Shown in pieces: positions 7,294 to 42,350 of a DNA stretch of 64,000 bases. The translations under genes were made by a program, and so were the position numbers. Each line of letters opens with the position of its first letter. Position 1 is the stretch's first letter. Source of the stretch: a bacterium (GTDB taxonomy: Bacteria > Methylomirabilota > Methylomirabilia > CAVQYV01); the NCBI GenBank assembly GCA_043800755.1, contig JAZDMQ010000017.1, positions 34,297 through 98,296 of the forward strand, in the 5' to 3' direction. The notes beneath the pieces are model-generated. The model saw only the letters and a program-made list of their open reading frames with translations. It was not told the DNA's origin and made no database searches.

Positions 7294-7369
7294 GGGCGAA
7301 TAGCTCAGGTGGGAGAGCGCTTGCCTTACAAGCAAGAGGTCACGGGTTCAAATCCTGTTTCGCCCACCA
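7294..7369 (+). tRNA. tRNA-Val (anticodon TAC)
   Basis: Cloverleaf: acceptor GGGCGAA/TTCGCCC; D-arm GCTC-AGGTGGGA-GAGC; anticodon stem CTTGC, loop CTTACAA; T-arm ACGGG-TTCAAAT-CCTGT; discriminator A and encoded CCA. Confidence 0.85.
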
Positions 7370-7392: not shown

Positions 7393-7469
<77 letters not shown>

Positions 7470-13039: not shown

Positions 13040-14394
13040 ATGGATTGGGAACGCATCGGAATCATCACCCTGTTATTCGCCTTGGGCTTCCTTGTCAGCG
13101 TGGTGTTGGCCGGACCCCCTTCCGGCAAGCTGGCTGATCCGCAGGACCCCTTCTTCCCCTCCCGCCTCTCGGCTGCGGGGGGCAAGGCGATCAAGGCCTC
13201 GGATTTCGAACCTCCAGAGGACTGCGGCGAGTGTCACGACCAGATCTACAGCCAATGGGAAGGTGGAATGCACGCTAATGCCTGGAAGGACCCTGCCTAT
13301 ACGGCCCTCCATGCCCTAGCCAGCAAGGAGACCCGTGGCCTCGCAGACCGCTATTGCATCGCCTGCCATGCGCCGGTCGCCGTCTTGTCTGGAGAGGTCC
13401 AGCCGGGAAAGGAGTTCAATGTGGGGGAGCTCTCCCAGAAGGGGGTGCAGTGCGATTTCTGCCATACCGTTTCCGGAAGCTTGGGAATCGGCAATCTGCC
13501 GGCGGTCTCCTCTCCCGGTCCGATCAAACGTGGTCCCTTCAAGGACAGCCAATCTCCTGCCCACGAGGTGGCCTTCTCCCCCTTCCATACCTCCGCCGAA
13601 TTCTGCGGGATGTGTCACGATGTCTACCATCCGGCCAACGGCCTCCCCTTGGAGAAGACCTACACGGAATGGTCTGAGGGACCCTATCCGAGCCGGGGGG
13701 TAAAATGCCAGGATTGCCACATGACCCCCGGGATCATTAAATTTCAGCCAAACCCCGGGGCTGCGGCCACCATGGGGCCCGCGCGGGAGCATATCTGGAC
13801 TCATAATATCGTGGGGGCCAACGCCGCCATGGCCTCCCACCTCGGGTTCAGGGGCCATAGCGAAATGGCTTTGAAGCGGCTAAAGTCGGCAGCGAGCCTG
13901 GAGATCCTCAGTCCAACGCAGGCCAGGGCCGGAGAGGTCGCCACGGTTAAAGTCAAGGTGGCCAATGTGGGCGCTGGCCATTTCCTGCCGACTGGATTGA
14001 CGGAGAGCCGGGAGATGTGGCTGGAGGTCACGGTAACGGGGCCGGGGGGAGCAAGGCTCTTCGTCTCCGGAAAGACCGACGAAAAGGGGGAGATCGATCC
14101 GGATGCCGTGCTCTACCAAACGGTCTTCGCCAATACCCAAGGAGACCCAGTGGGGGCTCGGGTCTGGGAGGCCGATCATTTGCTCTGGGATCACCGCATC
14201 CCCCCCTCGGCCATTCCCTGGAGCGGTTCAGCTTCCCGATCCCAGCGGGGATGAAGGGCAAGTGCCAGGTGGAGGCCAGGCTGCTCTATCGATCCTTCTC
14301 GCAGGGCGTGGTCAATCTGCTTCTGGGAGAAAAGGCCCCCGCCTGGCCCATCTATGAGATGACCCAGGCAGCGGGCTCCTTTGAGATTGACTGA
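13040..14394 (+). CDS. Membrane-anchored pentaheme c-type cytochrome (frame switch at a C7 run)
   Basis: N-terminal TM anchor. Five CxxCH sites (CGECH, CIACH, CDFCH, CGMCH, CQDCH). ORF 13040..14254 and its continuation 14017..14394 join if one C is added to the C7 run at 14200-14206 (...WDHRIPPLGHSLERF...). Confidence 0.7.
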
Positions 14395-15348: not shown

Positions 15349-17199
15349 TCAAGGCAACAGGGACCCCTCCCAGGACCGCAGGAGGTCCTGGGCCTGGAAT
15401 CCCCAGGGCCAGAGCAAGGTTTCGGCAGCCTTGGCCAGATATTCCAGATATTTGGAAAGGCCGTACCCCACTTCCTCCTTCCATGGAGGGACCTTCACCC
15501 TCCGCCCTTTCTCCTTTGCCTCCACCTCCGCGAGCAGGAATTGAACCTCCTCTCCGGGATGTAGCCTCACCCCCTGCCGTTCTAATTCTTGGCTCGCCAA
15601 GGCGGTCCAGTTGTCCTGGAGATAATCCTCCGGCCTGTGGGAGAGGGTGCGGCAAATCAGTAATTCCTCCCGATCCACCTCCCCCCGCTTGAGCCTCTCG
15701 GCATATCCTTCCGCGAGGGCCAATATCCAGGGAATCCTTTCCTCCAGTTCGCTGCCACCTTTGGCCGAGGCCATCACCTGGAGCATCTCCAATTGGGCCC
15801 TTTGGACGAAAAGAGGGATATCTCCTCGCCGCAGTTCGATGCCCCTCGCCTTGATCTCGCCCGAGGCAAAGACCCCAAAGTAGCGATTCGCCACAGAACG
15901 GGAGTTGTCCAGGCGCGAGGAGGGAAAGGCGATCCAACGATAGATGCCCTCCAGACTCAAGGGGATACCGGTGACCTCCCCGATCCGGCGGCAGAGCTGC
16001 AGAAGATTCGCCTCCCTCATCCCCTCCTTCTGCACCCACAGGGAATCCACCAGGGCATGGAGCACCCGAAACCCCGCGGCCTCCGCGATCTCTTTGGCTT
16101 GGAGGAGCTTCTCGCGTCCAAAGGCGGTTACCACCTCGTGGGCCTCGATCCTTCCGAATCGGGCATTGCGGTATCCCAGATAGCCGAAGCAGGTGACCAG
16201 GATCCATTTGAGGGCCACCTGCCTTCGATCATAGACCCCCCCTTCCTCCCCCTGAGCCTCCTTCATCCGCTCCTTATATCTCCTTCGCTTCTCCAAGATG
16301 GGCTCCAGGGTTTTCGGCACCAATCCCCTCCGCCTCTGGCAGAGCACATATCCCACCTCCGGGACCCTCTCCCCTTGCCCCCCTCGACAGCAGGCGCAAT
16401 CCACCGTCTCCGGGGAAATATTATGCCTCACCATGATGGCCGGATACATGGAAGAGAAATCGATTTCTCCCACTCCCTGGTGCAGGCCGAGGACAGGTTG
16501 ATAGACCAGGCCTCCCTTGTCGGCCACCAAGAGCTGCGAGGCGCTTTTGAACCTCTCTGGCTCCCCCTTATTCCAGGGGATGAGGATGCCGTCCTGAAGG
16601 GCTCGATCCATTTGCATGGAGGTGATGCCGGTGCCCGGGGAACGCCGGGCCATCCTTTGCAGGGAGATCTTGGTGAGGCGCGAGAGCTCGATCAACCCTT
16701 CCAGGCCAGTCGCTTCCCAGAGGAAAGAGTTGCGGCGATCTATATGCCAACGCCCGAACAGGGGATAGGAGGGGGCCTGAGAAAGGATCCGACCGTAAGA
16801 GAAATAGGAGCGCCTCCTCCCAGGTAATGGCCCTCCTCACTCGCTCCCGGTCCAGCTTCAAAGGGATGCCCAGGCGCTGAGCCAGAGAGAACAGAGAGGG
16901 AAGGAGGTGGGAATCCCCCCAGCTACTCAGGATCAGGTCAGGATCGTAGTGGCTGATCAAACCCGCCCCTCCCTTGATCAGCTTCTCCCCATCTCCTCCC
17001 TTCCACATCCAGCATTCTCCCCCTACCTTGACCTGGATAGAAGGAAGCCTCCCCGGAGGCAGATGGCGAATCTCCTCCGCCGGCTCGACCTCCATCTGGC
17101 GCCGAAGATGACCCCCCCCTCCTCGATGAGCCAGAGGACGATCGTGTTAGCAGAGGGATAGAGGTCGAAGATCCAGCCCCTACCTCTTTTCCTTCCCAT
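15349..17199 (-). CDS. Divergent family-B DNA polymerase (E. coli Pol II-like) homolog with degenerate catalytic motifs; reading frame broken twice
   Basis: Three minus-strand frame segments align colinearly with E. coli PolB. (1) ~17199-17110: WIFDLYPS at the Exo I position (DIET becomes DLY). (2) 17095..16568: ISHYDPDLILSSWGDSHLLPSL...LGIPLKLDRE vs NYDPDVIIGWNVVQFDL...RLPLRLGRD (Exo II). (3) 16695..15349: motif A IDFSSMYPAIM; motif B KWILVTCFGYLG (vs KIIMNAFYGVLG); motif C HALVDS (vs YGDTDS); KKRY becomes ANRY. Frame breaks at the C8 run 17112-17119 and near 16700. Confidence 0.6.
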
Positions 17200-17497
17200 C
17201 CTCCTTCTCCTCCAGCCCTTGTACCCTCAGGCTGAGTTCTTGGAGGGAGTGCTGATGTTCCAGAAGAATGGACATCAGAATGGCCTCCAGGGGGACGGCC
17301 CGGGAGGAGTAGCTGCATTCGGCCACATGAAATCGGGCAGCGTTGAAGAGGGCATCAAAACTCCGCTGATATTCACGGGGCAAGGCCCTACGAAATTTCT
17401 TCCAGGCCTCATATTCCCCCTCGATGACCCGGCTAAAAGGCAACACGGTTCTTCCCATGGCGATCCTTACCCTTTCCTTCAGAAGAATACCTAACAT
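17180..17497 (-). CDS. Hypothetical 105-aa charged helical protein immediately upstream of the polB-like gene
   Basis: Coding-like composition. Its stop overlaps the polB-like start region. A 1-nt change in an A4 run would fuse it in-frame to the polB-like N-terminus (...EKEDGKERGRGWIFDLY). Confidence 0.4.
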   Translation of the reverse strand: MLGILLKERVRIAMGRTVLPFSRVIEGEYEAWKKFRRALPREYQRSFDALFNAARFHVAECSYSSRAVPLEAILMSILLEHQHSLQELSLRVQGLEEKEDGKEKR

Positions 17498-17719
17498 ATA
17501 TTAGGGTTTCAAGGGGAAAAATGGGTTCCTCCTCTGGGCACTGGCTCGAAAAAAGTTTTGCAACGGAGTCAATTATGATATAGTCGGCCGGCCCATCCCG
17601 GCCGGCCAGATAGGACCTTCCACGCAAATCCCCCACCGGACAGGGGAAGAAGATGCATTGCACATCAATCCTCGCAGCCAGCTTTAAGGTCAGCGAGAGA
17701 ATATAAGAGGAAAATCCTC

Positions 17720-19094: not shown

Positions 19095-22000
19095 TTGACT
19101 GTCTCCAGTAGCCTGGCCCTGAGCGAGGTCATCCAGCGTCTGGCCGACGGCGTGGTCAAGGACCTGGCCTATCCTGTCTGTTATGCCAACCTCTATCATC
19201 CGGAAGAAAACAATCTCTCTATCGTAGGCTTCGCCCCGCGAGGAAAGCTTCTGGCGATGGCAGAGAAGATGCTGAATCTGCGGGGTCGATGAGATCCGTT
19301 TCCCCTTTAAGGCAGCAGTACCCGCCTATGCGCGCATCTTCCGGGGAGAGGAGTTCGTCATCAAGGACTATGGGGAATTGGTGAGTCCCTACCTCCCTTC
19401 CTCCGTGGCCCACGCCTCACAAAAGGTCTTCGGGGTCAAGAGAGCATCCTGGTGGTCCCCCTGCGCAGCAAGGAAGAGCTCCTGGGGGTCTTCCTGGTGG
19501 GCAACACCAACGACGATTTCTCCCCCGAGGAACGGGAGACCATGCGGATCGTGGCCCGACATGCGGCCATCGCCATGGAGAAGGCCTTGTTCTACGAGGC
19601 ACTGGAGCGGGAGAAGAAAGAGGCGGAGGCGATGGCGGAGATCGCCAAAGACCTCTCCACCTCCCTGGATCTCCGCCGCACCCTCCGCACCATCGTGAGA
19701 TATGCCCGAACCCTCTGTCAGTGCGACCTTTCGGCGGTCGCCCTCTATCACAAGGAATTGGGCTGTGCAATGATCACCGAGTACGAGGGCGCCCGGACCG
19801 ATGTTCTAAAAGACCTGAAGATCTATCCGGGAAAGGGGCCGGGAGGAAAGGTCCTGGAGACTGGACGAGTGTGGATCACCGATGATTTCCTCCATGATCC
19901 CCGCCTCACCCGCGACTACGACCGTGAAGCAAAGACCGAGGGCCTCCGCACCAATTTGGCTGTTCCCATCTTCTTCCAGCAGGAAATCGCCGGAATCCTG
20001 TAGGTAGTGAATCGTTCGCCCTCCTCCTTCACGCCCTACCATCAGAGGATTCTACAAAAGCCATCGAACCAGGCGGGGATTGCCATACTCAACGCCCAGC
20101 TCTATGAGGGTTCCAAGCAGGCATTGCAGAGACAGAGGTCACTGGTGGAGATCGTGGCGGCCATCAACGCCTCACGGGATCACAAAGAGATCCTGATGAT
20201 CATCGCCCAATTTGCCACGGAGTTCTGCCATGGAGACGCAGCCGCGGTTTATGGCTTGAATGAGGAGGGATACCTGATCCTGCAGGCGGGCCATAACCTC
20301 TCTCCCCTCTTCGCCAAGGCCGTTGAGGAGGCAAAGATCCTTCCGGCAGAGGCGGCGATCAACAAGACCATCATCTCCGGTTTTCCGGTCGAGGTCTTCG
20401 ATCCCTGCACTGAGCCGGACTTTCCTCCCAAGCTGATCGCCCTCCTGAAAAAGGATGGCCTAAGAAGTCTTATCACCATGGCCCTTACCAGGGGGGGGGA
20501 GGGAGATCGGGGCCCTGACGGTCTTTCGCCGTCAGCTTCAGCACTTCAGCTCCGAGGAGCTCAACCTCCTGAACATCCTGACCCAGCATATCGCCGTCTC
20601 CCTGGAAAAGAATCTCCTCTACCGCGAAATGGAGGACCGCAGCACTCGACTCGCGGTGCTGAGCGAAATCGCCAAGGCCATCAGCACCTCTTTGGACTCG
20701 GAGCAGATCTTCCACGCCATGCTGGCGGAGATCGACCGCATCATCCCCTGCCAAAGGGCGGCCCTTTATCTCTTCCAACCAGAACGAGATGTCTTCATCC
20801 TCCAATTCCTCTACGAAAAACACCCCGATCCCGAGCACCTGAACCACAAGGAGAGGCCCGCTTCCGAAACCCCGGCCAGCATCTCCTTTTTCGCCAAAAA
20901 ACCCTTTTATGTCAAGAATACACGGGAATCCGATCTGGCTGTCGTCCAGGAGTTGAAGGCCCTGAACTCGATGGGAATCCTCTCCGTGCTTTACATCCCT
21001 ATCCTGGGAGATGATACCTGCCTCGGGGTCTTGAGCCTGGGGAGTTCTGAACTCGCGGGGTTCCGTGAGGACCAGATCCGCCTCCTCAGCGAGCTCTCCC
21101 CCACCTGGCCCTGGCCCTGAAGAATGCCCGGCTCTATGCGGAGCTCAGGCAGACCCTCTCTGCGCTGGAAAGGACGCAGGAACGAGTCCTGCAGGCGGAG
21201 AAACTCAAGGCCCTGGGGGAAATGGCCTCGGGAATCGCCCACGATTTCAATAACCTGCTCGCCACGATCCTGGTGCGGGCGGAACTCCTGGAGCGCAGGA
21301 TCACTGATCCTGAAGTTCAAGAGTGGGCGCGAGTCATCCAGAGGACAGTCTTGGATGGAGCGGAAACCGTGAGAAGGCTGCGCTCCTTCTATAAGGGGGA
21401 GCCCGGTCTGGAGAAAGGCCCTCAGGATCTCGATCAAATCCTCGAGGAGGTCATCCGTCGGACCGAACCCAGATGGAAGGATCAGGCCCAAGTGAAGGGA
21501 ATTACTATCGAGCTGGAAATGGACCTGCAGCCGGTGCGCCCCATACTTGGCAATGCCTCCGAGCTCCGGGAGGTCTTCACCAACCTCATCTTTAACGCCA
21601 CTGACGCCCTCCCCCACGGAGGAAAGATATCCATCTCCACCCGACTGCGGGATGCCGGTTTGCCCGGGGAAATGGTTGAGGTTTCCGTGTCTGATAACGG
21701 GATCGGCATGTCGGAGGAGGTATTAGAACGGGCCTTCGATCCCTTCTTTACCACCAAGGGGGCCCGCGGCTCGGGTCTGGGCCTCTCGGTCTCCTACGGC
21801 ATCATCAAGCGCTACCGGGGGAAGATCTCTATCCGCTCCCGCTTGAACCATGGCACTTCCATCCTGATCCAATTTCCTTCCACGCTGGGAATGCCCGAAC
21901 AAAGCATTTTCCCTCCCATGAATTTGACCTCCCCCCGCTGAGGATTCTGGTGATAGAGGATGAAAAGGAGCTCGCGGAGGGCCTCCAACAGATGCTCTCT

Positions 22001-32226: not shown

Positions 32227-33207
32227 TTAAGTTCTCATCCTCTCCCATGCCTCGGGATTGACCAGAAACTTCGGCCTCCGGCCCTCCAGGGCATCCAGGA
32301 CATTCTGCGCGGCGACCTGGCCCATCTGGGCCAGGGCCTCGTGGGTGTGCGCCCCCATGTGCATGGTGGTCACCAAGCCCTCCAGGGCGAGAAGGGGGCT
32401 GTCCACCGGCGGCTCCGCTGAATAAACGTCCGTAGCCGCCCCGGCGATCCATCCTTCTTCCAGTGCCCTCTTAAGGGCCGCCTCATCCACTACCCTCCCC
32501 CGGGAGACATTAATCAGGTGGGCCGTCTTTTTCATCTTCCGAAGGCGGGGCTCGTCGATGAGATTCTCTGTCTGGGGCGTCAGCGGGCAATTGAGGGTGA
32601 TGAAGTCAGATCGTCCAAGGAGCTCCTCCAAAGAGAGGGGCTCGATCCCCTCCCTCTTCAAAAAATCCTGTTCCGGGAAGATGTCAAAGGCAAGCACCCG
32701 CATGTCCAGGGCTTTCGCCTTCCGGGCCAACGATTGTCCAATCCTCCCCAACCCCACGATCCCCAATACCTTGCCTGCCAACTCGCTCCCCAGGCACTGA
32801 CCCCATTGGCCAGACTTGACCTGCCGGTCCGCAAAGGGGATATGCCGGGCGGAGGCCAGCATTAACCCTAGGGCCAACTCTGCTACCGCATTGGTATTTG
32901 CCCCCGGGGCGTTGCAGACCAAAACTCCCCGCTCAGAGGCCGTCTTCAAGTCGATGTTGTCCACCCCCACCCCATGGACCGAGATCGCCCGAAGCTCGGA
33001 TCCGGCCCCGATGGCCGAGGCGGTAACTTTCTCGCCCCCCACAATCAGCCCTGAGACCCCCTGGATCAGGACCTTATATTCTTCTTCCGTCGGCGGCCGG
33101 CCGTGGGGATTCCAGACCAGCTCATAGGCAGACGGGGAGAACATCCCCAATGGCTCCTTCGCATGCTTGCCAAAGGTCCTGGCAGTGATCAGTATCTTCT
33201 TCTTCAA
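32227..33207 (-). CDS. D-isomer-specific 2-hydroxyacid dehydrogenase (glycerate/hydroxypyruvate/phosphoglycerate DH family)
   Basis: NAD-binding GIVGLGRIGQ and catalytic R/E/H arrangement. Start set at TTG giving MKKKILITA, with a GGAGGAGGAGGG RBS just upstream; the ORF track extends to 33339. Confidence 0.8.
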   Translation of the reverse strand: MKKKILITARTFGKHAKEPLGMFSPSAYELVWNPHGRPPTEEEYKVLIQGVSGLIVGGEKVTASAIGAGSELRAISVHGVGVDNIDLKTASERGVLVCNAPGANTNAVAELALGLMLASARHIPFADRQVKSGQWGQCLGSELAGKVLGIVGLGRIGQSLARKAKALDMRVLAFDIFPEQDFLKREGIEPLSLEELLGRSDFITLNCPLTPQTENLIDEPRLRKMKKTAHLINVSRGRVVDEAALKRALEEGWIAGAATDVYSAEPPVDSPLLALEGLVTTMHMGAHTHEALAQMGQVAAQNVLDALEGRRPKFLVNPEAWERMRT

Positions 33208-33220
33208 GAGTCCCTCCTCC

Positions 33221-34744
33221 TCATTCCCCCAACTCGTCCTCCCTGATTCCCTTGAGCGCCTTCCAGTCTGCCAGCGAATGCTCATAGAGATCAGCAAAGA
33301 GCCCGTACCCTCTCCGGTAGCGCTGATGGGAGTCCCCATCGGGGTGAAGCACTTTTTCTATCGCTACCCGTTCCGTAACCTTACAGAGATCGGAAACGAT
33401 CCCCATTCCCAGTGCCGCCATGGCGGAAGCCCCCAAGGCAGAGGCCTCTCCCACAGCAGGAACCAAGGCCCTCCGACCAAGAATGTCACACATCATCTGA
33501 CCCCAGAGAGGAGAGCGGGTAAACCCCCCGGTAAAACGGATCTCCTTGACTCCCCCACTGATCTCTTCCATGGCCTGAAAGACCCTGAACATCTGGTATC
33601 CCAACCCTTCCATCACCGCCCGCGAGAAATGTGCCCGCTGGTGATGGGAACCGATCCCGAAAAAAGCCCCTCGCGCCTCGGTCCGCCAGTTTGGCGACCT
33701 TTCCCCGGTAAGATATGGCAAGAAAATGAGGCCTTCGCAGCCCCGAGGAACCGACGCGGCCCATTCATCCAGCAGCGCGAAACGATCTTTCCCCCGCTTA
33801 CCCCCTGGAGGGGATTTTCCCCAAAAGCTCTCCCAGAACCACTGCAGGACCATGCCTCCGTTGTTGACTCCCCCCAAGATCCAGAGGTCCTCTTTGAGCA
33901 AATAGCACCAGGTCCGCTGGGCAGGACAAAGCCTTGGCCGGTCCAGGATCATGCGCAGGATCCCCCCGCTTCCGATGCTCAGGTTCAGCTGCCCTGGTTC
34001 AATCACGCCGGCCCCGATATTAGAAAGGGGCCCATCCCCACCTCCCGCATAAACCGGAGTCCCCTCCAGGAGTCCGGTTCTCCTGGCTACCTCTCCTCGA
34101 ATCCTTCCCAGACAAGATTGGGGAGGAACGGCCTGGGGAAGGTAGCTGCCGGGCAAATCCAGGAGGCTCAAGACATCCTGATCCCATCGCTGCTGGTGGA
34201 TGTTGAAAAGGCCACTGGCCGAGGCAACGATGTAGTCGGTGATGAAGTCCCCTCCAGTCAGATAATGGGCCACATAGTCCTTGATGGAGATTAACTTGTG
34301 GACCCGGGCGTAAAGGGAGGGAAGCTCCTCCTTGAACCAGAGAATCTTCGCCAAGAGGTACATGGCGTTATTGCGGCACCCGGTCTTTCGATAGAGGTCA
34401 CCTTCCCGGAAGGCCTCCTCCAGCCGGGAGGACTGTGCTTCTGCCCGATTGTCGGACCACTGAATGGGGGGATGTAGCGGTTGGCCCCGGGCATCGACCG
34501 CCAGCAGGCTGTAAAGGACCCCGCTCAATCCTATGCCCAGGATTTCTCGGGGGGATATTTCGGTCTTTCGCAGACAGGCCCGAATAGCACGGAGCACACC
34601 TGTCAGGACCTGATCGGCGTCCTGTTCCGCCCACTGAGGATGGGGGACCTGGAGCGAAAGACTGACCGCCTCCTTTCCTCTTACCGCAAAGCCGAGGTCG
34701 AAGATCACCGCCCGACAGGCACTGGTCCCAATGTCGATTCCCAA
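33221..34744 (-). CDS. FGGY-family carbohydrate kinase (second copy)
   Basis: 507 aa. MGIDIGTSACRAVIFD N-terminus and FGGY fold. Confidence 0.8.
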   Translation of the reverse strand: MGIDIGTSACRAVIFDLGFAVRGKEAVSLSLQVPHPQWAEQDADQVLTGVLRAIRACLRKTEISPREILGIGLSGVLYSLLAVDARGQPLHPPIQWSDNRAEAQSSRLEEAFREGDLYRKTGCRNNAMYLLAKILWFKEELPSLYARVHKLISIKDYVAHYLTGGDFITDYIVASASGLFNIHQQRWDQDVLSLLDLPGSYLPQAVPPQSCLGRIRGEVARRTGLLEGTPVYAGGGDGPLSNIGAGVIEPGQLNLSIGSGGILRMILDRPRLCPAQRTWCYLLKEDLWILGGVNNGGMVLQWFWESFWGKSPPGGKRGKDRFALLDEWAASVPRGCEGLIFLPYLTGERSPNWRTEARGAFFGIGSHHQRAHFSRAVMEGLGYQMFRVFQAMEEISGGVKEIRFTGGFTRSPLWGQMMCDILGRRALVPAVGEASALGASAMAALGMGIVSDLCKVTERVAIEKVLHPDGDSHQRYRRGYGLFADLYEHSLADWKALKGIREDELGE

Positions 34745-39069: not shown

Positions 39070-40539
39070 TTATTTCTTCCAGAGATACTCGATAATATTG
39101 ATGCCCAGTTCTCGGGGAAAGACGGACCGCACGATCTGCCTTCTCTCGGCCTCCGAGGCAAGGGCGATTATCTCCCCCTCCACTCTATTGCCCTTTGCAT
39201 CGCGGAGAAGCTCCACCCGGGGAAGGTGAAGGAATTCGGGATGGGGGCTAACCTCCACCACGATGCCCACCTCGCCCGAATCAAAAAGGAGCAGCGTCCC
39301 CCGGGGATAGATCCCGATGGTGTTCACAAAGACCTTGAGCAAGAGGGGATCGTAACCCTTCCCTCCTTCATCCATCATGATCGCCAACGCCTGATCCGGG
39401 AGAAACGGGTTGGGACGATATACCCGGGCCGTGGTCATGGCATCGAAGGAATCGGCGATCCGAATGATGCGCGAGAAGAGGGTCAACTTCCTCTTCTTGG
39501 ATAGTGGTGGATAACCGGAAAGGTCATAATTGAGGTGGTGCTCAAAGGAGGCAATCATCGATTGCAGGACCAGGTCATTCAGCCCCTTGAGCCGCATCAG
39601 GGGAAGGACGCCATAATACGGGTGGAGGGCTACAATCTTGAACTCGTCCTTTTCCAAAGCGGTGGGCTTATTGATCAATTCCTCCGGAATCCGAACCTTT
39701 CCGATATCATGGAAGAAGGCCGCCATCCCCAATTTGAACAGTTGCGACTTCGTATATCCGAGGCGCGATCCCAGGGCAGTGGAGAGGATGCTGACATTGA
39801 CCGAGTGGTTGGCCGTGTAATCATCATAATTCTTAATGGAGGTGAGGCCCAGGATGAACAAATCCTCGGACAAGATGAGGTCCACTAGGGATTGCACCAC
39901 TCTCTTGCTCCCCTTCATGTCAATTCGGTCCGAGGTGGCCGCCTGATCCAATACGCTCCGGATATTGGTGATGCCCTTGAGGAAGGTGACCTTCGCCAGT
40001 TCCCGGCCTTTGGAATCAGATCCCCCGGCTGAATAACGGGGAGCAATCAACCCATCCACGGCAATGCGGGCAATCCCATTCTGGATGAGCCGTTCCTGTA
40101 AGATTTGAGAGGGATTTTCCGCCTGGGTCTCCAGACCCAGCAGCAGGGAGATGAACTGCTGGAGATCTTCCGCCTCCACCGCCTCCCGGAAAATCACCGA
40201 ACCGATCTTGCGCCCCTTGAGTTCCTCCACTAGCCTGCTGTAGCTCAGGTATCCTTCGATGTCAAACCTGAGGCGTTGGTCATTGACAAAGAGATAGGAA
40301 TCGACCAGACGCAGTGAGACCTCTCCTTCCAGGGGAAGCAAGGAATTAAGGACCTCGGCCAATTTGTGCAGGGGGCGAAGGAAGGCCTCATTGGCCAATC
40401 CATACATCTTGGCGCTCTTGAAGGAGACATAGAGGAGGCTCACTAGGCTCTTCATCTCCCGGGCAATGCGCTCATCGATCACCTCGGTGAGCTTCACCCG
40501 GGAGTCCGCTCGGTGATCCCTCACGCCGAATCCTCCCAT
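39070..40539 (-). CDS. HD-GYP domain phosphodiesterase with N-terminal DUF3391-like sensor domain
   Basis: HD domain FFHDIGKV...HH and LNYDLSGYP (HD-GYP signature). N-terminal ~300 aa resemble the domain commonly preceding HD-GYP. The track ORF extends to 40938 through low-complexity sequence overlapping the upstream gene; start set at MGGFGV. Confidence 0.7.
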   Translation of the reverse strand: MGGFGVRDHRADSRVKLTEVIDERIAREMKSLVSLLYVSFKSAKMYGLANEAFLRPLHKLAEVLNSLLPLEGEVSLRLVDSYLFVNDQRLRFDIEGYLSYSRLVEELKGRKIGSVIFREAVEAEDLQQFISLLLGLETQAENPSQILQERLIQNGIARIAVDGLIAPRYSAGGSDSKGRELAKVTFLKGITNIRSVLDQAATSDRIDMKGSKRVVQSLVDLILSEDLFILGLTSIKNYDDYTANHSVNVSILSTALGSRLGYTKSQLFKLGMAAFFHDIGKVRIPEELINKPTALEKDEFKIVALHPYYGVLPLMRLKGLNDLVLQSMIASFEHHLNYDLSGYPPLSKKRKLTLFSRIIRIADSFDAMTTARVYRPNPFLPDQALAIMMDEGGKGYDPLLLKVFVNTIGIYPRGTLLLFDSGEVGIVVEVSPHPEFLHLPRVELLRDAKGNRVEGEIIALASEAERRQIVRSVFPRELGINIIEYLWKK

Positions 40540-42350
40540 GTACTTTGCGCCGAGAGCCGAGAAACCCGCGACAGGGCTGCCCGACATACCTGGCTGATCG
40601 CCTTGTCGGCTCCTCTCGCTCCTTCCCGCAACATCCCTTTGGCCGCGGGGGTTCCAATTAAGGCCATGGCGATGGCCGCTCCCTCCCTCATCTCCTCTAT
40701 CCTTCCCCGGTGGAACACGCTCTTTTTGAACAGGATCTCTCTCAGCAAGGGGAGGACCTGATCGGAGCCCAACTGACCGACTGCCTCCAAAATCTCCCTC
40801 TTTTCCTCCTGGCTCCGGTTTCGGAAATCCCTGTCCTCTACCATCTTCAAGAGAGGAGAAAGGGCCCTTTTTTCTCCCAGGCTCGCCAGGGCCCGCGCCG
40901 CTGCAACCTGCAGGGGGGCTGGGGAAGACTGGAGGCAAACGAGGAGATAGTCGCGTGAAGCGAGGTCTCCAATGGCCCCCAGGGCACGAATGGCCTCCTT
41001 CCAGACCCGAGACTCCCCGTCCTTCACTAGCTCCTTCAGATACCTCACCCCCTGGGGATCCCGCATCAAACCCAAGATGTAGGCCACATTCCGGGCCACA
41101 AACCAGCGCGAATCTTTGACCGCCGGTCCGAGAAGCTCGACATGACCTTGCGCCAATTGGGCGATGGAATCACAGAGAATGCGCCGTGCCTTCATCTGTT
41201 CAAGCTCCCCCAGAACCTCGCACAGGGGGAGAATTGCCTGGTGGTCAAGGAGCGAGACATAGGACTGAAAAGAGCGAAGTCCCCCCTCATCCGCACGGTT
41301 TAAGACCTTGGGTAGCCTCCTCAATCTCTCTGAACTCCCCATGCGCTTGACCGCTTCCCGGATCAGGCCTCGGCGCTCTTCAGACAGATTCAAGGGGAGG
41401 TCCATCAGTTGCCGCAGGTCCCTCAAAATCTGGTATGCCTTGAGGAAATTTCCTTGTAGGCAATAGGACTCGGCGATCCGCTCCACGATGGCCAAGATCT
41501 CCTTTGATCCCTCAATATCTTCCTTGGCCGATAGTATCTCCAACAACAGGGCTATGAACTCCTCGCCCAGATCCTTGTCCTTTTCCATCCCCATCTCCGA
41601 CTTGACCCTTTCCACCTCTTCCTCCGCGAGAGAGAAGATGGGAATCCTTCCTGCCGGGGCCGGAGGAATCAAGTCGGTGTAAGTCGGGAGGGAGTCGGCC
41701 GCGCCGGCCTGGGCCCCGGGGGATTGGGTATTCAAGGGGGCCTCCAGCTCAGCCTTTCCATGATCCAACAAACCTTGGGAGAGCGAGGAAAAGTCAATTT
41801 CCTTCTCCTCCTCCGCCATCACATCCACCACCATATAATCGATGTTAGGGAAATCCTTCTCCCAGAAAAGAGTAGCCAGATCATCATCTGCATCCGGCTC
41901 ATAAATGCTGGATTTGAGGACTTCCAAGAAGGTCTGGATCTCTGAAGGCTCAACCCCTTCGAAGAATCGGAGCCGGCGCAGGCCATCCTTATGCAGGTGA
42001 AAGGCCAAACTCTCCCCAGGGTCTCGATTTTCGTAGACGGTTTGCCCCTCGTAGTCGATCCGGAATTGCCCAATATTCCAGGTCATCACCGGCTGGGCCG
42101 TCAGGAAAGAGGCGAGGCTGTTGGCCAAATCCTGGAAGAGCTTCTGATAGGCGGGATTATCCGGATGGTAAACCCGGCTGGCCTTTAGGGCCTTGCTCAG
42201 GGAGAGCAGGACATCTCGTGCTGCCTTAAGCTCCAGGGCATCAGGCCCTGGAGCCCCTCCCTGGCTCATAGCCCCCTTTTCCTGCTGCGGCAGATGCGAG
42301 AGTCCGCTGTCCGGGGGGTTCGATGTGGCGTCGTTTGGGTTCATCCGCAA
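40521..42350 (-). CDS. HEAT/PBS-lyase-repeat protein with N-terminal domain homologous to the HD-GYP protein N-terminus
   Basis: 609 aa. C-terminal half has repeated HEAT-like units (VRYLKELVKDGESRVWKEAIRALGAIGD..., LQVAAARALASLGEKRALSPLLKMV...). N-terminal ~150 aa (SKALKASRVYHPDNPAYQKLF...FFEGVEPSEIQTFLEVLK) parallel the HD-GYP N-terminus (FKSAKMYGLANEAFLRPLH...IFREAVEAEDLQQFISLL). Confidence 0.6.
   Translation of the reverse strand: MRMNPNDATSNPPDSGLSHLPQQEKGAMSQGGAPGPDALELKAARDVLLSLSKALKASRVYHPDNPAYQKLFQDLANSLASFLTAQPVMTWNIGQFRIDYEGQTVYENRDPGESLAFHLHKDGLRRLRFFEGVEPSEIQTFLEVLKSSIYEPDADDDLATLFWEKDFPNIDYMVVDVMAEEEKEIDFSSLSQGLLDHGKAELEAPLNTQSPGAQAGAADSLPTYTDLIPPAPAGRIPIFSLAEEEVERVKSEMGMEKDKDLGEEFIALLLEILSAKEDIEGSKEILAIVERIAESYCLQGNFLKAYQILRDLRQLMDLPLNLSEERRGLIREAVKRMGSSERLRRLPKVLNRADEGGLRSFQSYVSLLDHQAILPLCEVLGELEQMKARRILCDSIAQLAQGHVELLGPAVKDSRWFVARNVAYILGLMRDPQGVRYLKELVKDGESRVWKEAIRALGAIGDLASRDYLLVCLQSSPAPLQVAAARALASLGEKRALSPLLKMVEDRDFRNRSQEEKREILEAVGQLGSDQVLPLLREILFKKSVFHRGRIEEMREGAAIAMALIGTPAAKGMLREGARGADKAISQVCRAALSRVSRLSAQSTWEDSA

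Follow-up and report, generated by a model that had tools for sequence, protein, structure and literature searches.

On its minus strand, at positions 15349-17199, the window (the whole 64-kb stretch of DNA that was analysed) carries frame segments of a DNA polymerase whose catalytic motifs look altered. Does this locus hold an eroded polymerase, a derivative put to another use, or a member of a family in which such motifs are the rule? An earlier note on this DNA had proposed a family-B polymerase homolog related to E. coli Pol II. Family-B homology was borne out: the HMM search that the note had suggested gave a Pfam PF00136 match at E 2.7e-33, the NCBIfam model NF004416 (type B DNA-directed DNA polymerase) matched at E 3.6e-100, and archaeal PolB structures in the PDB were matched by the segments at E 1e-46 to 1e-41 in sequence searches. 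Archaeal PolB chains were the top PDB matches both by sequence and by fold, and an AF2 model of an intact ortholog (pLDDT 89.5) gave TM values of 0.65-0.74 against archaeal PolB structures. Among the NCBIfam models, NF004416 and NF004418 scored best, while archaeal PolB1-type models scored much lower and Pol II models were very weak. NF004416, an equivalog model, was the top-scoring model, but the sequences did not reach its curated cut-off of 516 bits: the scores were 418-449 bits for full-length relatives and 336 bits for the 448-aa ORF of the window.

The relationship to Pol II did not hold up. Matches to the Pol II models NF004420-NF004422 would fit a diverged paralog of E. coli-type Pol II (polB) whose motifs had eroded privately, but these matches are weak, at 26-62 bits (E 1e-6 to 1e-12) against cut-offs of 570-1435 bits. 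Because archaeal-type models and structures match far better, the polymerase is assigned to the archaeal type and is, judged by sequence, related to archaeal PolB1-3/PolB2 and not to E. coli Pol II. The latter has in common with the family the family-B fold and the status of an SOS-inducible accessory polymerase, but differs in its active DEDDy proofreading exonuclease, in its canonical YGDTDS and KKRY motifs, and in having no PPB2 or iRadA partners (the two proteins are described below).

The window protein is 49-57% identical to relatives in its family (~50% to listed Thermodesulfobacteriota members of the operon discussed below), and the strings running from motif B to motif C are closely alike. 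The family A1 consensus string, ALKWMLVTCFGYLGYRNARFGRIEAHEAVTAFGREKLLQAKEICEEEGFELLHAITDSLWI, recurs unchanged in supplementary file 1 of PMC11791011, under MDI7260312.1 and NWF92840.1; that supplement gives the string for Thermodesulfobacteriota PolB2, and 'HALVDS/LVD' is also among its tabulated motifs. The group is widespread: of 185,579 species-representative genomes, 589 or more encode a relative. The family thus defined appears to be the bacterial PolB2 (G2) group, transferred from archaea; the NJ tree comprised bacterial-type sequences only, plus one contig labelled Bathyarchaeia.

The motifs themselves were read from the minus-strand translation as EIDFSSMYP for motif A (16432-16467), KWILVTCFGYLGY for motif B (16171-16209), HALVDS for motif C (16042-16059), in which only the second Asp of DxD is present, and ANRY (15874-15894). 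The second of the three segments into which the gene is broken contains the Exo II equivalent GDSHLLPSL (16892-16921) and KLDRERV (16838-16858), the PolB2-specific D(K/R) loop motif that was defined for the PolB2 group in PMC7544198 and PMC11791011. The altered motifs listed in the earlier note were read as claimed for motifs A, B, C, ANRY, and Exo II, while its Exo I call, DLY, has to be withdrawn. The stretch in question, WIFDLYP at 17155-17175, is the first N-terminal strand, since positions 17-125 of the family profile align with the N-terminal domain of archaeal PolB. The strand equivalent to Exo I lies at approximately residues 141-168 of the intact ortholog, and DxE is absent from the family consensus in either alignment register (HPDPSES or MELR). 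Across the family, HL or SL stands in place of the FD of Exo II. Compared to 5mdn, ~45 fewer residues separate the D(K/R) loop from the next conserved block, a gap that is the sole sign of a putative loss of Exo III.

Conservation was counted in a 64-sequence alignment of orthologs. No variation was seen at D375 (the Asp of motif A), K459 (the Lys of motif B), H509, A510, D513 (the second Asp of motif C), or RY (567-568), while the position of the first motif C Asp is occupied by L or I; the published table of bacterial PolB2 motif C entries likewise contains 'LVD' and 'ITD' (PMC11791011). Within the D(K/R) loop, at least 90% of the sequences have D245, and all have R246. Because the substitutions are found without exception in at least 64 orthologs of many phyla, they are, on sequence grounds, a conserved PolB2 (G2) signature and not private erosion. 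The view that they are not sequencing noise was correct, and the ortholog alignment proposed as a check shows them to be conserved in 64 sequences. Invariance of the same 'eroded' motifs, taken with the low scores of the Pol II models, leaves a privately eroded Pol II paralog with a negligible probability.

Directly upstream of the polymerase, in the same orientation, lies an intact 92-aa gene, PPB2 (arCOG07300/DUF8156; 17180..17458, minus strand), whose true start is at 17458 (MGRTVLPFSR...). It is 99% identical to a gene of L001, an assembly with an intact allele of the locus, that is annotated PF26485, and 52-57% identical (E 1e-25 to 1e-27) to PPB2 of lexA-iRadA-PPB2-PolB2 operons. PPB2 proteins of operon-bearing relatives are nearly identical to the published PPB2 MGRTVLPFSQVLEQE. 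The N-terminal arm M1-G2-R3-T4 is invariant in 18 PPB2 sequences, and a low-confidence single-sequence structure model (pLDDT 61) consists of the arm and three helices. A Pfam search did not detect PF26485 in the window ORF, though precomputed annotations do give it for orthologs, and our literature search on DUF8156 found no paper. In intact orthologs, PPB2 is adjacent to polB2, on the same strand, and overlaps its start by 20 nt. Two other views of the program-listed 105-aa ORF at 17180..17497 were considered and dropped. Its fusion to the polymerase is ruled out, as intact orthologs have two separate overlapping genes. It is also not a detached polymerase N-terminal domain, as the earlier note had suggested it might be: the ORF is the separate PPB2 gene, and most of the N-terminal domain was lost through a 384-nt deletion at 17101-17103.

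The pairing of these two genes is familiar. The earlier note held that the locus is not a standard annotated system; in fact, the bacterial lexA-iRadA-arCOG07300(PPB2)-PolB2 operon was described in 2014 (Makarova, PMC4104785), bacterial PolB2 was classed as group G2 in 2020 (Kazlauskas, PMC7544198), and PolB2-PPB2-iRadA was modelled as a mutasome in 2025 (Timinskas, PMC11791011). In common with this operon, the window has a D(K/R) loop, a motif C with one Asp (LVD), an apparent lack of exonuclease catalytic residues, and a directly upstream PPB2 with the MGRT arm. The synteny check suggested earlier gave a mixed answer: PPB2 is adjacent as in the relatives, but iRadA, which together with PPB2 lies upstream in 60 of the 69 relatives whose upstream sequence spans 1.5 kb or more (30 of those 60 also have lexA), is missing from the window locus. 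The iRadA profile matches RadA/Rad51/DMC1 at E 4e-7. Neither tblastn nor an iterated HMM search found iRadA anywhere in the 64-kb window, and lexA is likewise absent from it; either gene could be elsewhere in the genome. A divergent SDR gene occupies the position upstream of PPB2 in place of iRadA. Lack of iRadA and lexA at the usual upstream site is common to a Methylomirabilis-like clade.

The region upstream of PPB2 contains, as a pattern match only, a σ70-like promoter (TTGAAA, 17-nt spacer, TATTCT; 17484..17512, minus strand); it matches the consensus at 9 of 12 positions, and the scan found two such sites where 1.0 was expected. Between the −35 and −10 elements lies a candidate operator, the palindrome CCTAATATATGTTAGG (CCTAA-N6-TTAGG; 17490..17505, minus strand); CTAAYNNNNRTTAG matches nowhere else in the 64 kb, where 0.03 matches were expected. 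In the ortholog-bearing assembly L087 (CCTAATTTTTGTTAGG), the arms are kept and the spacer is different. SOS-box-like palindromes are found in the same place upstream of the relatives' operons, but the window sequence is unlike these SOS-box types. The window thus differs from the bacterial PolB2 operon in its operator type, in lacking iRadA and lexA, and in its polymerase gene, which is broken by the 384-nt deletion and by frameshifts.

Lesions in polB2 were called against an intact 744-aa ortholog (P0002) and the L001 allele, 98% identical to the window copy; all features that follow are on the minus strand. The first segment of the pseudogene (17120..17199; tblastn of P0002 and DNA alignments) comprises codons 1 to ~27 (MGRKRGRGWIFDLYPSANTIVLWLIEE), that is, the first strands of the N-terminal domain. 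DNA alignment shows that it is followed by a G8 run (17112..17119) in place of the GGGGGGAGG of the intact allele (−1 nt), confirming the frame lesion that the earlier note had placed at this run. The run is G7 (−2 nt) in three other assemblies of the same allele, and its length in the window is unreliable, as the window differs from the related contig L002 mainly at homopolymers. The second lesion, at 17101..17103, is the junction of the 384-nt (128-codon) deletion, identified by DNA alignment, with a 2-nt GC microhomology; approximately residues 34-161 are taken out, so that little of the N-terminal domain is left and the exonuclease-like domain lacks its start. The second segment (16816..17100, tblastn) covers codons ~162-256, in a frame different from that of the other two. 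It ends at a single A inserted at 16815, at codon 257 (GGGAGG-GGCG becomes GGGAGGAGGCG in the DNA alignment), and this is where the second frame break, previously put at ~16700, is actually located. The third segment (15349..16814; tblastn and profiles) contains codons 258-744 and the stop, coding for palm, fingers, and thumb. It is identical to NCBI MFH0871127.1 (P0122), and the program-listed 448-aa ORF (15349..16695) is its 3' part. The shifted frame holds stop codons, and an intact reading frame is absent. Two long overlapping ORFs elsewhere in the window (39070-42350 and 32227-34744) were considered as further frameshifted genes and rejected; they belong to different complete domain families and have over-extended starts.

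Because the deletion takes out most of the N-terminal domain and the two small indels break the frame, the gene would yield no full-length polymerase and is therefore regarded as dead. The window polB2 is by these signs a pseudogene, its remnant presumably non-functional, and its decay appears to have proceeded by deletion and frameshifts, not by erosion of motifs. The earlier suggestion of a decaying gene is in this respect upheld for the window copy.

Could polB2 be intact in the organism, with the frame breaks and the missing segment being sequencing or assembly artefacts of a low-quality MAG? There is some ground for concern. The window differs from L002, a 99.4%-identical contig, by six indels, mostly in homopolymer runs, and the polB2 G-run is G8 in the window against G7 in other assemblies. 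One of the six indels, at 14207, leaves the cytochrome ORF next door with 404 aa instead of 451. However, the inserted A at 16815 leaves homopolymer length unchanged and breaks the frame by itself, whatever the length of the G-run. The 384-nt deletion does not look like a repeat collapse either; a repeat-mediated assembly collapse is ruled out as its source, since the junction microhomology is merely 2 nt. Moreover, the deletion and the inserted A are common to four assemblies made by different pipelines from different samples (the window, Logan SRR11719878, and ENA ERZ27247725 and ERZ27247977), while intact alleles assemble normally elsewhere. An artefact is thus very improbable.

A second way to save a function would be to suppose that the 448-aa palm-fingers-thumb ORF, perhaps together with PPB2, is a truncated or non-enzymatic derivative with a DNA-binding, regulatory, or minimal polymerase role. 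In favour of this, the ORF is open, several assemblies list it as a protein, and its motifs A and B still have their Asp and Lys and its motif C the second Asp; PPB2, too, is intact in the window. Against this, the ORF starts with TTG, and the only purine-rich stretch (GGAAGGG) abuts the start, so that there is no spaced ribosome-binding site. The ORF is also without the parts predicted to hold PPB2 and iRadA, namely the N-terminal and exonuclease-like domains and the D(K/R) loop (PMC11791011), and it has replacements at invariant family positions. Finally, sister strains inactivate polB2 in another way, by a C-terminal frameshift, and lose PPB2; different inactivation in sister strains fits loss of function and not a new function. 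We consider a functional derivative unlikely, if somewhat less so than an artefact. With these points weighed, the locus is very probably what is left of a bacterial PolB2 'mutasome' operon, with polB2 itself disrupted and dead. The intact PPB2 of the window strain may keep a residual role.

The distribution of alleles shows how the damage is shared. L002, L088, and L089 have the 384-nt deletion in common with the window; it is absent from L001, L090-L092, L087, and all 64 aligned family members. A separate GAAA duplication at codon 614 shifts the frame in three further assemblies, and PPB2 is frameshifted in L088 and L089; in the species complex, polB2 has accordingly been disrupted independently at least twice, and PPB2 once. 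Replacements in the disrupted lineage affect residues with 92-100% conservation in the family, both in the window (Y268S, L554P, A484V, D708G) and in another protein, P0126 (A328V, Y451S, A510S). Between L087 and L001, whose orthologs are 80% identical, omega is 0.19 for PolB2 and 0.16 for PPB2, which points to purifying selection in the iRadA-less clade before the disruption. Pairwise dN/dS of the window against L001 was discarded, being inflated by 5' misalignment across the deletion (codons 138-161), and branch-polarised counts were used instead; the ratio of nonsynonymous to synonymous changes was 8:5 in the disrupted lineage and 2:5 on the intact branch, a suggestive difference, but in numbers too few for significance. 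A more ambitious reading is that in the Methylomirabilis-like clade (the window, L001, L087, and L090) a PPB2-PolB2 module worked without iRadA or an adjacent lexA, under its own operator and under purifying selection, and is now being lost repeatedly in one species complex. We offer it tentatively, as rather doubtful.

The remnant reading suggests the following course of events. Intact relatives have an operon, (lexA)-iRadA-PPB2-PolB2, presumably under SOS control. PolB2 would be a family-B polymerase of archaeal origin without proofreading, keeping just the second motif C Asp of DxD; PPB2 would be its small helical partner, with the MGRT arm predicted to insert between PolB2 and iRadA, and iRadA a putative ATPase-dead RadA homolog. 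By analogy with archaeal Dpo2, the complex may extend mismatched or lesion-paired primer ends in translesion synthesis. In the Methylomirabilis-like (NC10) lineage, the adjacent iRadA and lexA would already have gone from the module; the window strain would then have lost polB2 to the 384-nt deletion and the two small indels, with PPB2 still intact.

The archaeal prototype, Dpo2, has robust polymerase activity and no exonuclease, acts as a translesion-synthesis (TLS) extender (PMC8764526), and is needed for damage-induced mutagenesis (PMC7390963). Sulfolobales PolB2/Dpo2 is the only member of the group with both biochemistry and genetics, and no experimental characterisation of a bacterial PolB2 was found in the literature searched. 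Its likeness to the window family, drawn from motif patterns and the published descriptions, lies in the replaced first DxD Asp (IID in S. islandicus, LVD in the window), a probably dead exonuclease site, the partner genes PPB2 and iRadA, and an expected damage-inducibility of both. It differs in its archaeal Orc1/Cdc6-type regulation and in the gene order PPB2-PolB2-iRadA, and the window copy cannot make the enzyme. The idea of a catalytically degenerate, non-enzymatic protein is contradicted for Dpo2, and in the family only the first DxD Asp is lost; the PolB2/G2 group is thus probably, by analogy, an active translesion polymerase and not a dead enzyme. A functional analogy was proposed in PMC11791011 with the E. 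coli Pol V mutasome (UmuD'2C-RecA), in which LexA controls an error-prone polymerase of several subunits, one of them from the RecA/RadA family; Pol V belongs to an unrelated polymerase family (family Y), and the analogy is drawn solely from in silico models.

In sum, the locus is a largely ordinary one, a known system in degraded form, and has little importance outside annotation. What is now the 448-aa 'DNA polymerase domain-containing protein' should be listed as a pseudogene fragment, and the small upstream ORF as PPB2, starting at 17458, with the 105-aa ORF call dropped. When PolB motifs in a bacterial genome look 'eroded', the PolB2/G2 group should be checked first. Repeated inactivation of the module in the iRadA-less clade is a modest evolutionary observation, and its repeated, independent nature is consistent with iRadA being needed for a useful complex. 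If the reading of an iRadA-free module is true, the clade would be a natural test of whether losing the RadA-like subunit makes a mutagenic extender polymerase dispensable or costly.

A family-B DNA polymerase is encoded by three colinear minus-strand segments, from 17199 to 15349. The 448-aa ORF at 15349..16695 matches Pfam DNA_pol_B (E 2.7e-33), and among NCBIfam models NF004416 ("type B DNA-directed DNA polymerase") fits best (E 3.6e-100), while the E. coli Pol II models reach only E 1e-6 to 1e-12. In a three-frame translation, the N-terminal piece (MGRKRGRGWIFDLYPSANTIVLWLIEEGG) is read in the same frame as the large C-terminal one, and the middle piece, of roughly 95 codons, is in a different frame. 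The motifs quoted in an earlier note, which had claimed a Pol II-like polymerase with eroded catalytic motifs, were found in the translation (EIDFSSMYP, KWILVTCFGYLGY, HALVDS, and ANRY); a D(K/R) motif, KLDRERV, lies at 16838-16858 (minus strand). The assignment of Exo I to DLY was mistaken. Since positions 17-125 of the family profile align to residues 37-140 of Pyrococcus abyssi PolB, i.e., to the N-terminal domain, FDLYP forms the first strand of that domain. The strand equivalent to Exo I is located around residues 141-168, and DxE is absent in either possible register.

A database search returned an intact 744-aa ortholog, P0002, 98% identical to the window protein, and thousands of relatives (725-785 aa, about 50-57% identity), most of them in MAGs of Thermodesulfobacteriota. 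Alignment of the window DNA to L001, the contig of P0002, defined the minus-strand lesions: a G8 run at 17112-17119 (GGGGGGAGG in L001), a 384-nt in-frame deletion at 17101-17103, whose junction has only 2 nt of microhomology, and one inserted A at 16815. Residues ~34-161 are lost through the deletion; in an AF2 model of P0002 (pLDDT 89.5, pTM 0.88), this stretch accounts for most of the N-terminal domain and reaches into the exonuclease-like domain, taking in its first strands. Because stop codons are present in the frame that the N-terminal piece runs into, a full-length product is impossible, and the polymerase gene of the window strain is disrupted.

The deletion and the inserted A recur in L002 (Logan, SRR11719878) and in two ENA assemblies, L088 and L089. 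At 90% identity, the truncated ORF falls into a cluster of 17 sequences drawn from NCBI, ENA, JGI, and Logan; the NCBI member MFH0871127.1 is identical to the window ORF. The 384-nt deletion and the A insertion are not homopolymer events; they are real lesions rather than artefacts. The G-run is G7 in L002, L088, and L089, and six indels, mostly at homopolymers, separate the window from L002, so the exact run length at 17112-17119 is uncertain. Indels relative to L002 lie near 21099, 20499, 19444, and 19285, besides one at 14207. In the neighbouring multiheme cytochrome gene (ORF 13040..14254, plus strand), the window has G7 at 14201-14207 and the 99.4%-identical L002 has G8; the ORF is 404 aa long in the window and 451 aa in L002, L088, and L090. 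The indel at 14207 is probably a homopolymer-length error causing artefactual truncation.

In an alignment of 64 orthologs (mean column identity 63%), the motif A aspartate D375, the motif B lysine K459, the motif C residues H509-A510-x-x-D513, and R567-Y568 are invariant. The "eroded" substitutions are thus conserved among orthologs and under selection; they are a family signature. Four cysteines between motif A and the fingers (C396, C398, C399, and C415; window 16387-16401, DCACC, and about 16340) are invariant in 64/64 PolB2 relatives, and may constitute a metal site or a disulfide; in Thermococcales PolB, a disulfide occurs at the corresponding site.

The gene upstream, taken earlier for a 105-aa ORF, actually encodes 92 aa from a start at 17458 (MGRTVLPFSR...), and its orthologs are annotated PF26485/DUF8156. 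The operon is conserved in relatives, in the order lexA, a 217-254-aa protein without a Pfam hit, DUF8156, and PolB. The profile of the middle protein matches RadA/Rad51/DMC1 (E 4e-7), and 5/13 members match Pfam Rad51. The window locus is a member of the bacterial PolB2 system. Operons in bacteria that combine "inactivated" PolB2 with arCOG07300, inactivated radA, and lexA were described by Makarova et al. 2014 (PMC4104785). The bacterial group G2, as defined by Kazlauskas et al. 2020 (PMC7544198), is nested within archaeal B2 and is marked by an Exo I that is not conserved, the absence of Exo III, only one Asp in motif C, and a D(K/R) motif of its own. The name PPB2 for arCOG07300 comes from Timinskas et al. 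2025 (PMC11791011), who showed its N-terminal MGRT arm to be conserved, modelled a PolB2-iRadA-3xPPB2 mutasome (iRadA is an ATPase-dead RadA homolog), and gave iRadA-PPB2-PolB2 as the sole bacterial order, with lexA enriched nearby. In their supplementary tables, there are Thermodesulfobacteriota PolB2 entries with a motif string identical to our family consensus, a PPB2 (MGRTVLPFSQVLEQE...) is nearly identical to those of relatives L005 and L006, and "HALVDS/LVD" variants occur among the entries. These descriptions refute the view that the locus is not a standard annotated system.

Synteny was surveyed at 86 loci, 69 of which, with 1.5 kb or more of sequence upstream, form the count base. Both the RadA-like and the small gene are upstream in 60/69 (lexA too in 30 of these 60), neither is in 7/69, NC10 loci among them, and the small gene occurs without the RadA-like one in two, L001 and L002, of the window's clade. 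The same is true of L087 (738 nt upstream only). Searches of the entire 64-kb window for lexA and iRadA found none. Its sole Rfam matches are two tRNA genes (7294-7366 and 7393-7466, plus strand), with no rRNA among them. PolB2 without PPB2 or iRadA detected in the flanks examined was seen at L010, L012, L029 (NC10/Methylomirabilota), L016, L046, L072, and L075. The closest other PolB2 sequences in an NJ tree are from NC10/Methylomirabilota, and the names of sequences clustering with the truncated ORF point to "Candidatus Methylomirabilis sp.". In that tree, the NC10 loci without PPB2/iRadA are sister to the clade of the window, a placement suggestive of operon break-up in this lineage. L085, labelled Candidatus Bathyarchaeia, has the bacterial-type order iRadA-PPB2-PolB2 and clusters amid bacterial sequences; this could reflect misbinning or transfer back into archaea.

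A near-perfect palindrome, CCTAATATATGTTAGG, unique in the window, lies at 17490-17505, upstream of PPB2, flanked by −35-like and −10-like hexamers. L087 (80% identical) shares its arms and has a different spacer; the palindrome is a possible operator, of the LexA type or another. Directly upstream of the operon in many relatives (0-150 nt from its first gene) there are SOS-box-like palindromes of three types: GAAC-N4-GTTC (L028, L030, L032, L034, L035, L045, L054, L056, L062, L071, and L073), ATAC-N4-GTAT type (L013, L017, L040, L041, L057, and L061), and CGACA-N4-TGTCG (L080-L083). These look like lineage-specific SOS boxes, supporting LexA control of the PolB2 operon.

Decay is still under way in the window's clade, sister strains included. 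In PPB2, L088 and L089 have also lost 1 nt of a C run (C4 to C3; about 2305, codon about 26), and in L090-L092 (P0139) the N-terminus is complete and duplication of the 4-nt GAAA at codon 614 shifts the frame of the thumb domain; these inactivating mutations are independent events. Intact 744-aa alleles are P0002, P0137, P0138, P0140, and P0142. With the intact L087 (80% identical) as outgroup, nonsynonymous versus synonymous changes number 8 versus 5 in the disrupted lineage and 2 versus 5 on the intact L001 branch, a suggestive but not significant difference. Replacements Y268S, L554P, A484V, and D708G in the disrupted lineage fall at sites 92-100% conserved in the family, and the additional A328V, Y451S, and A510S of the related protein P0126 at invariant or near-invariant ones. 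Omega between L087 and L001 (0.19 for the polymerase, 0.16 for PPB2) indicates that the module was constrained before decay. At codon 214, P0002 has Gly where Asp is invariant in 62/62 relatives (FDPD to YGPD), so nominally intact alleles may already be under relaxed constraint. The "decaying gene" option of the earlier note is supported for the window copy.

Inactivity of the family is unsupported: archaeal Dpo2, the PolB2 prototype, shows robust polymerase but no exonuclease activity and extends termini that are mismatched or paired with a lesion (PMC8764526), and damage-induced mutagenesis requires it (PMC7390963). A literature search for experimental work on a bacterial PolB2 member found none. 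Overall, the earlier observation is partly borne out, and so is its interpretation: the altered motifs are shared by the whole family and this copy is decaying, but neither an undescribed system nor family-wide inactivity is supported. In intact relatives, an SOS-induced mutasome would extend primers past lesions without proofreading; in the window strain, the polymerase would be non-functional and PPB2 a leftover still to decay. What is new is a degraded member of the known PolB2 kind, which is also without iRadA.
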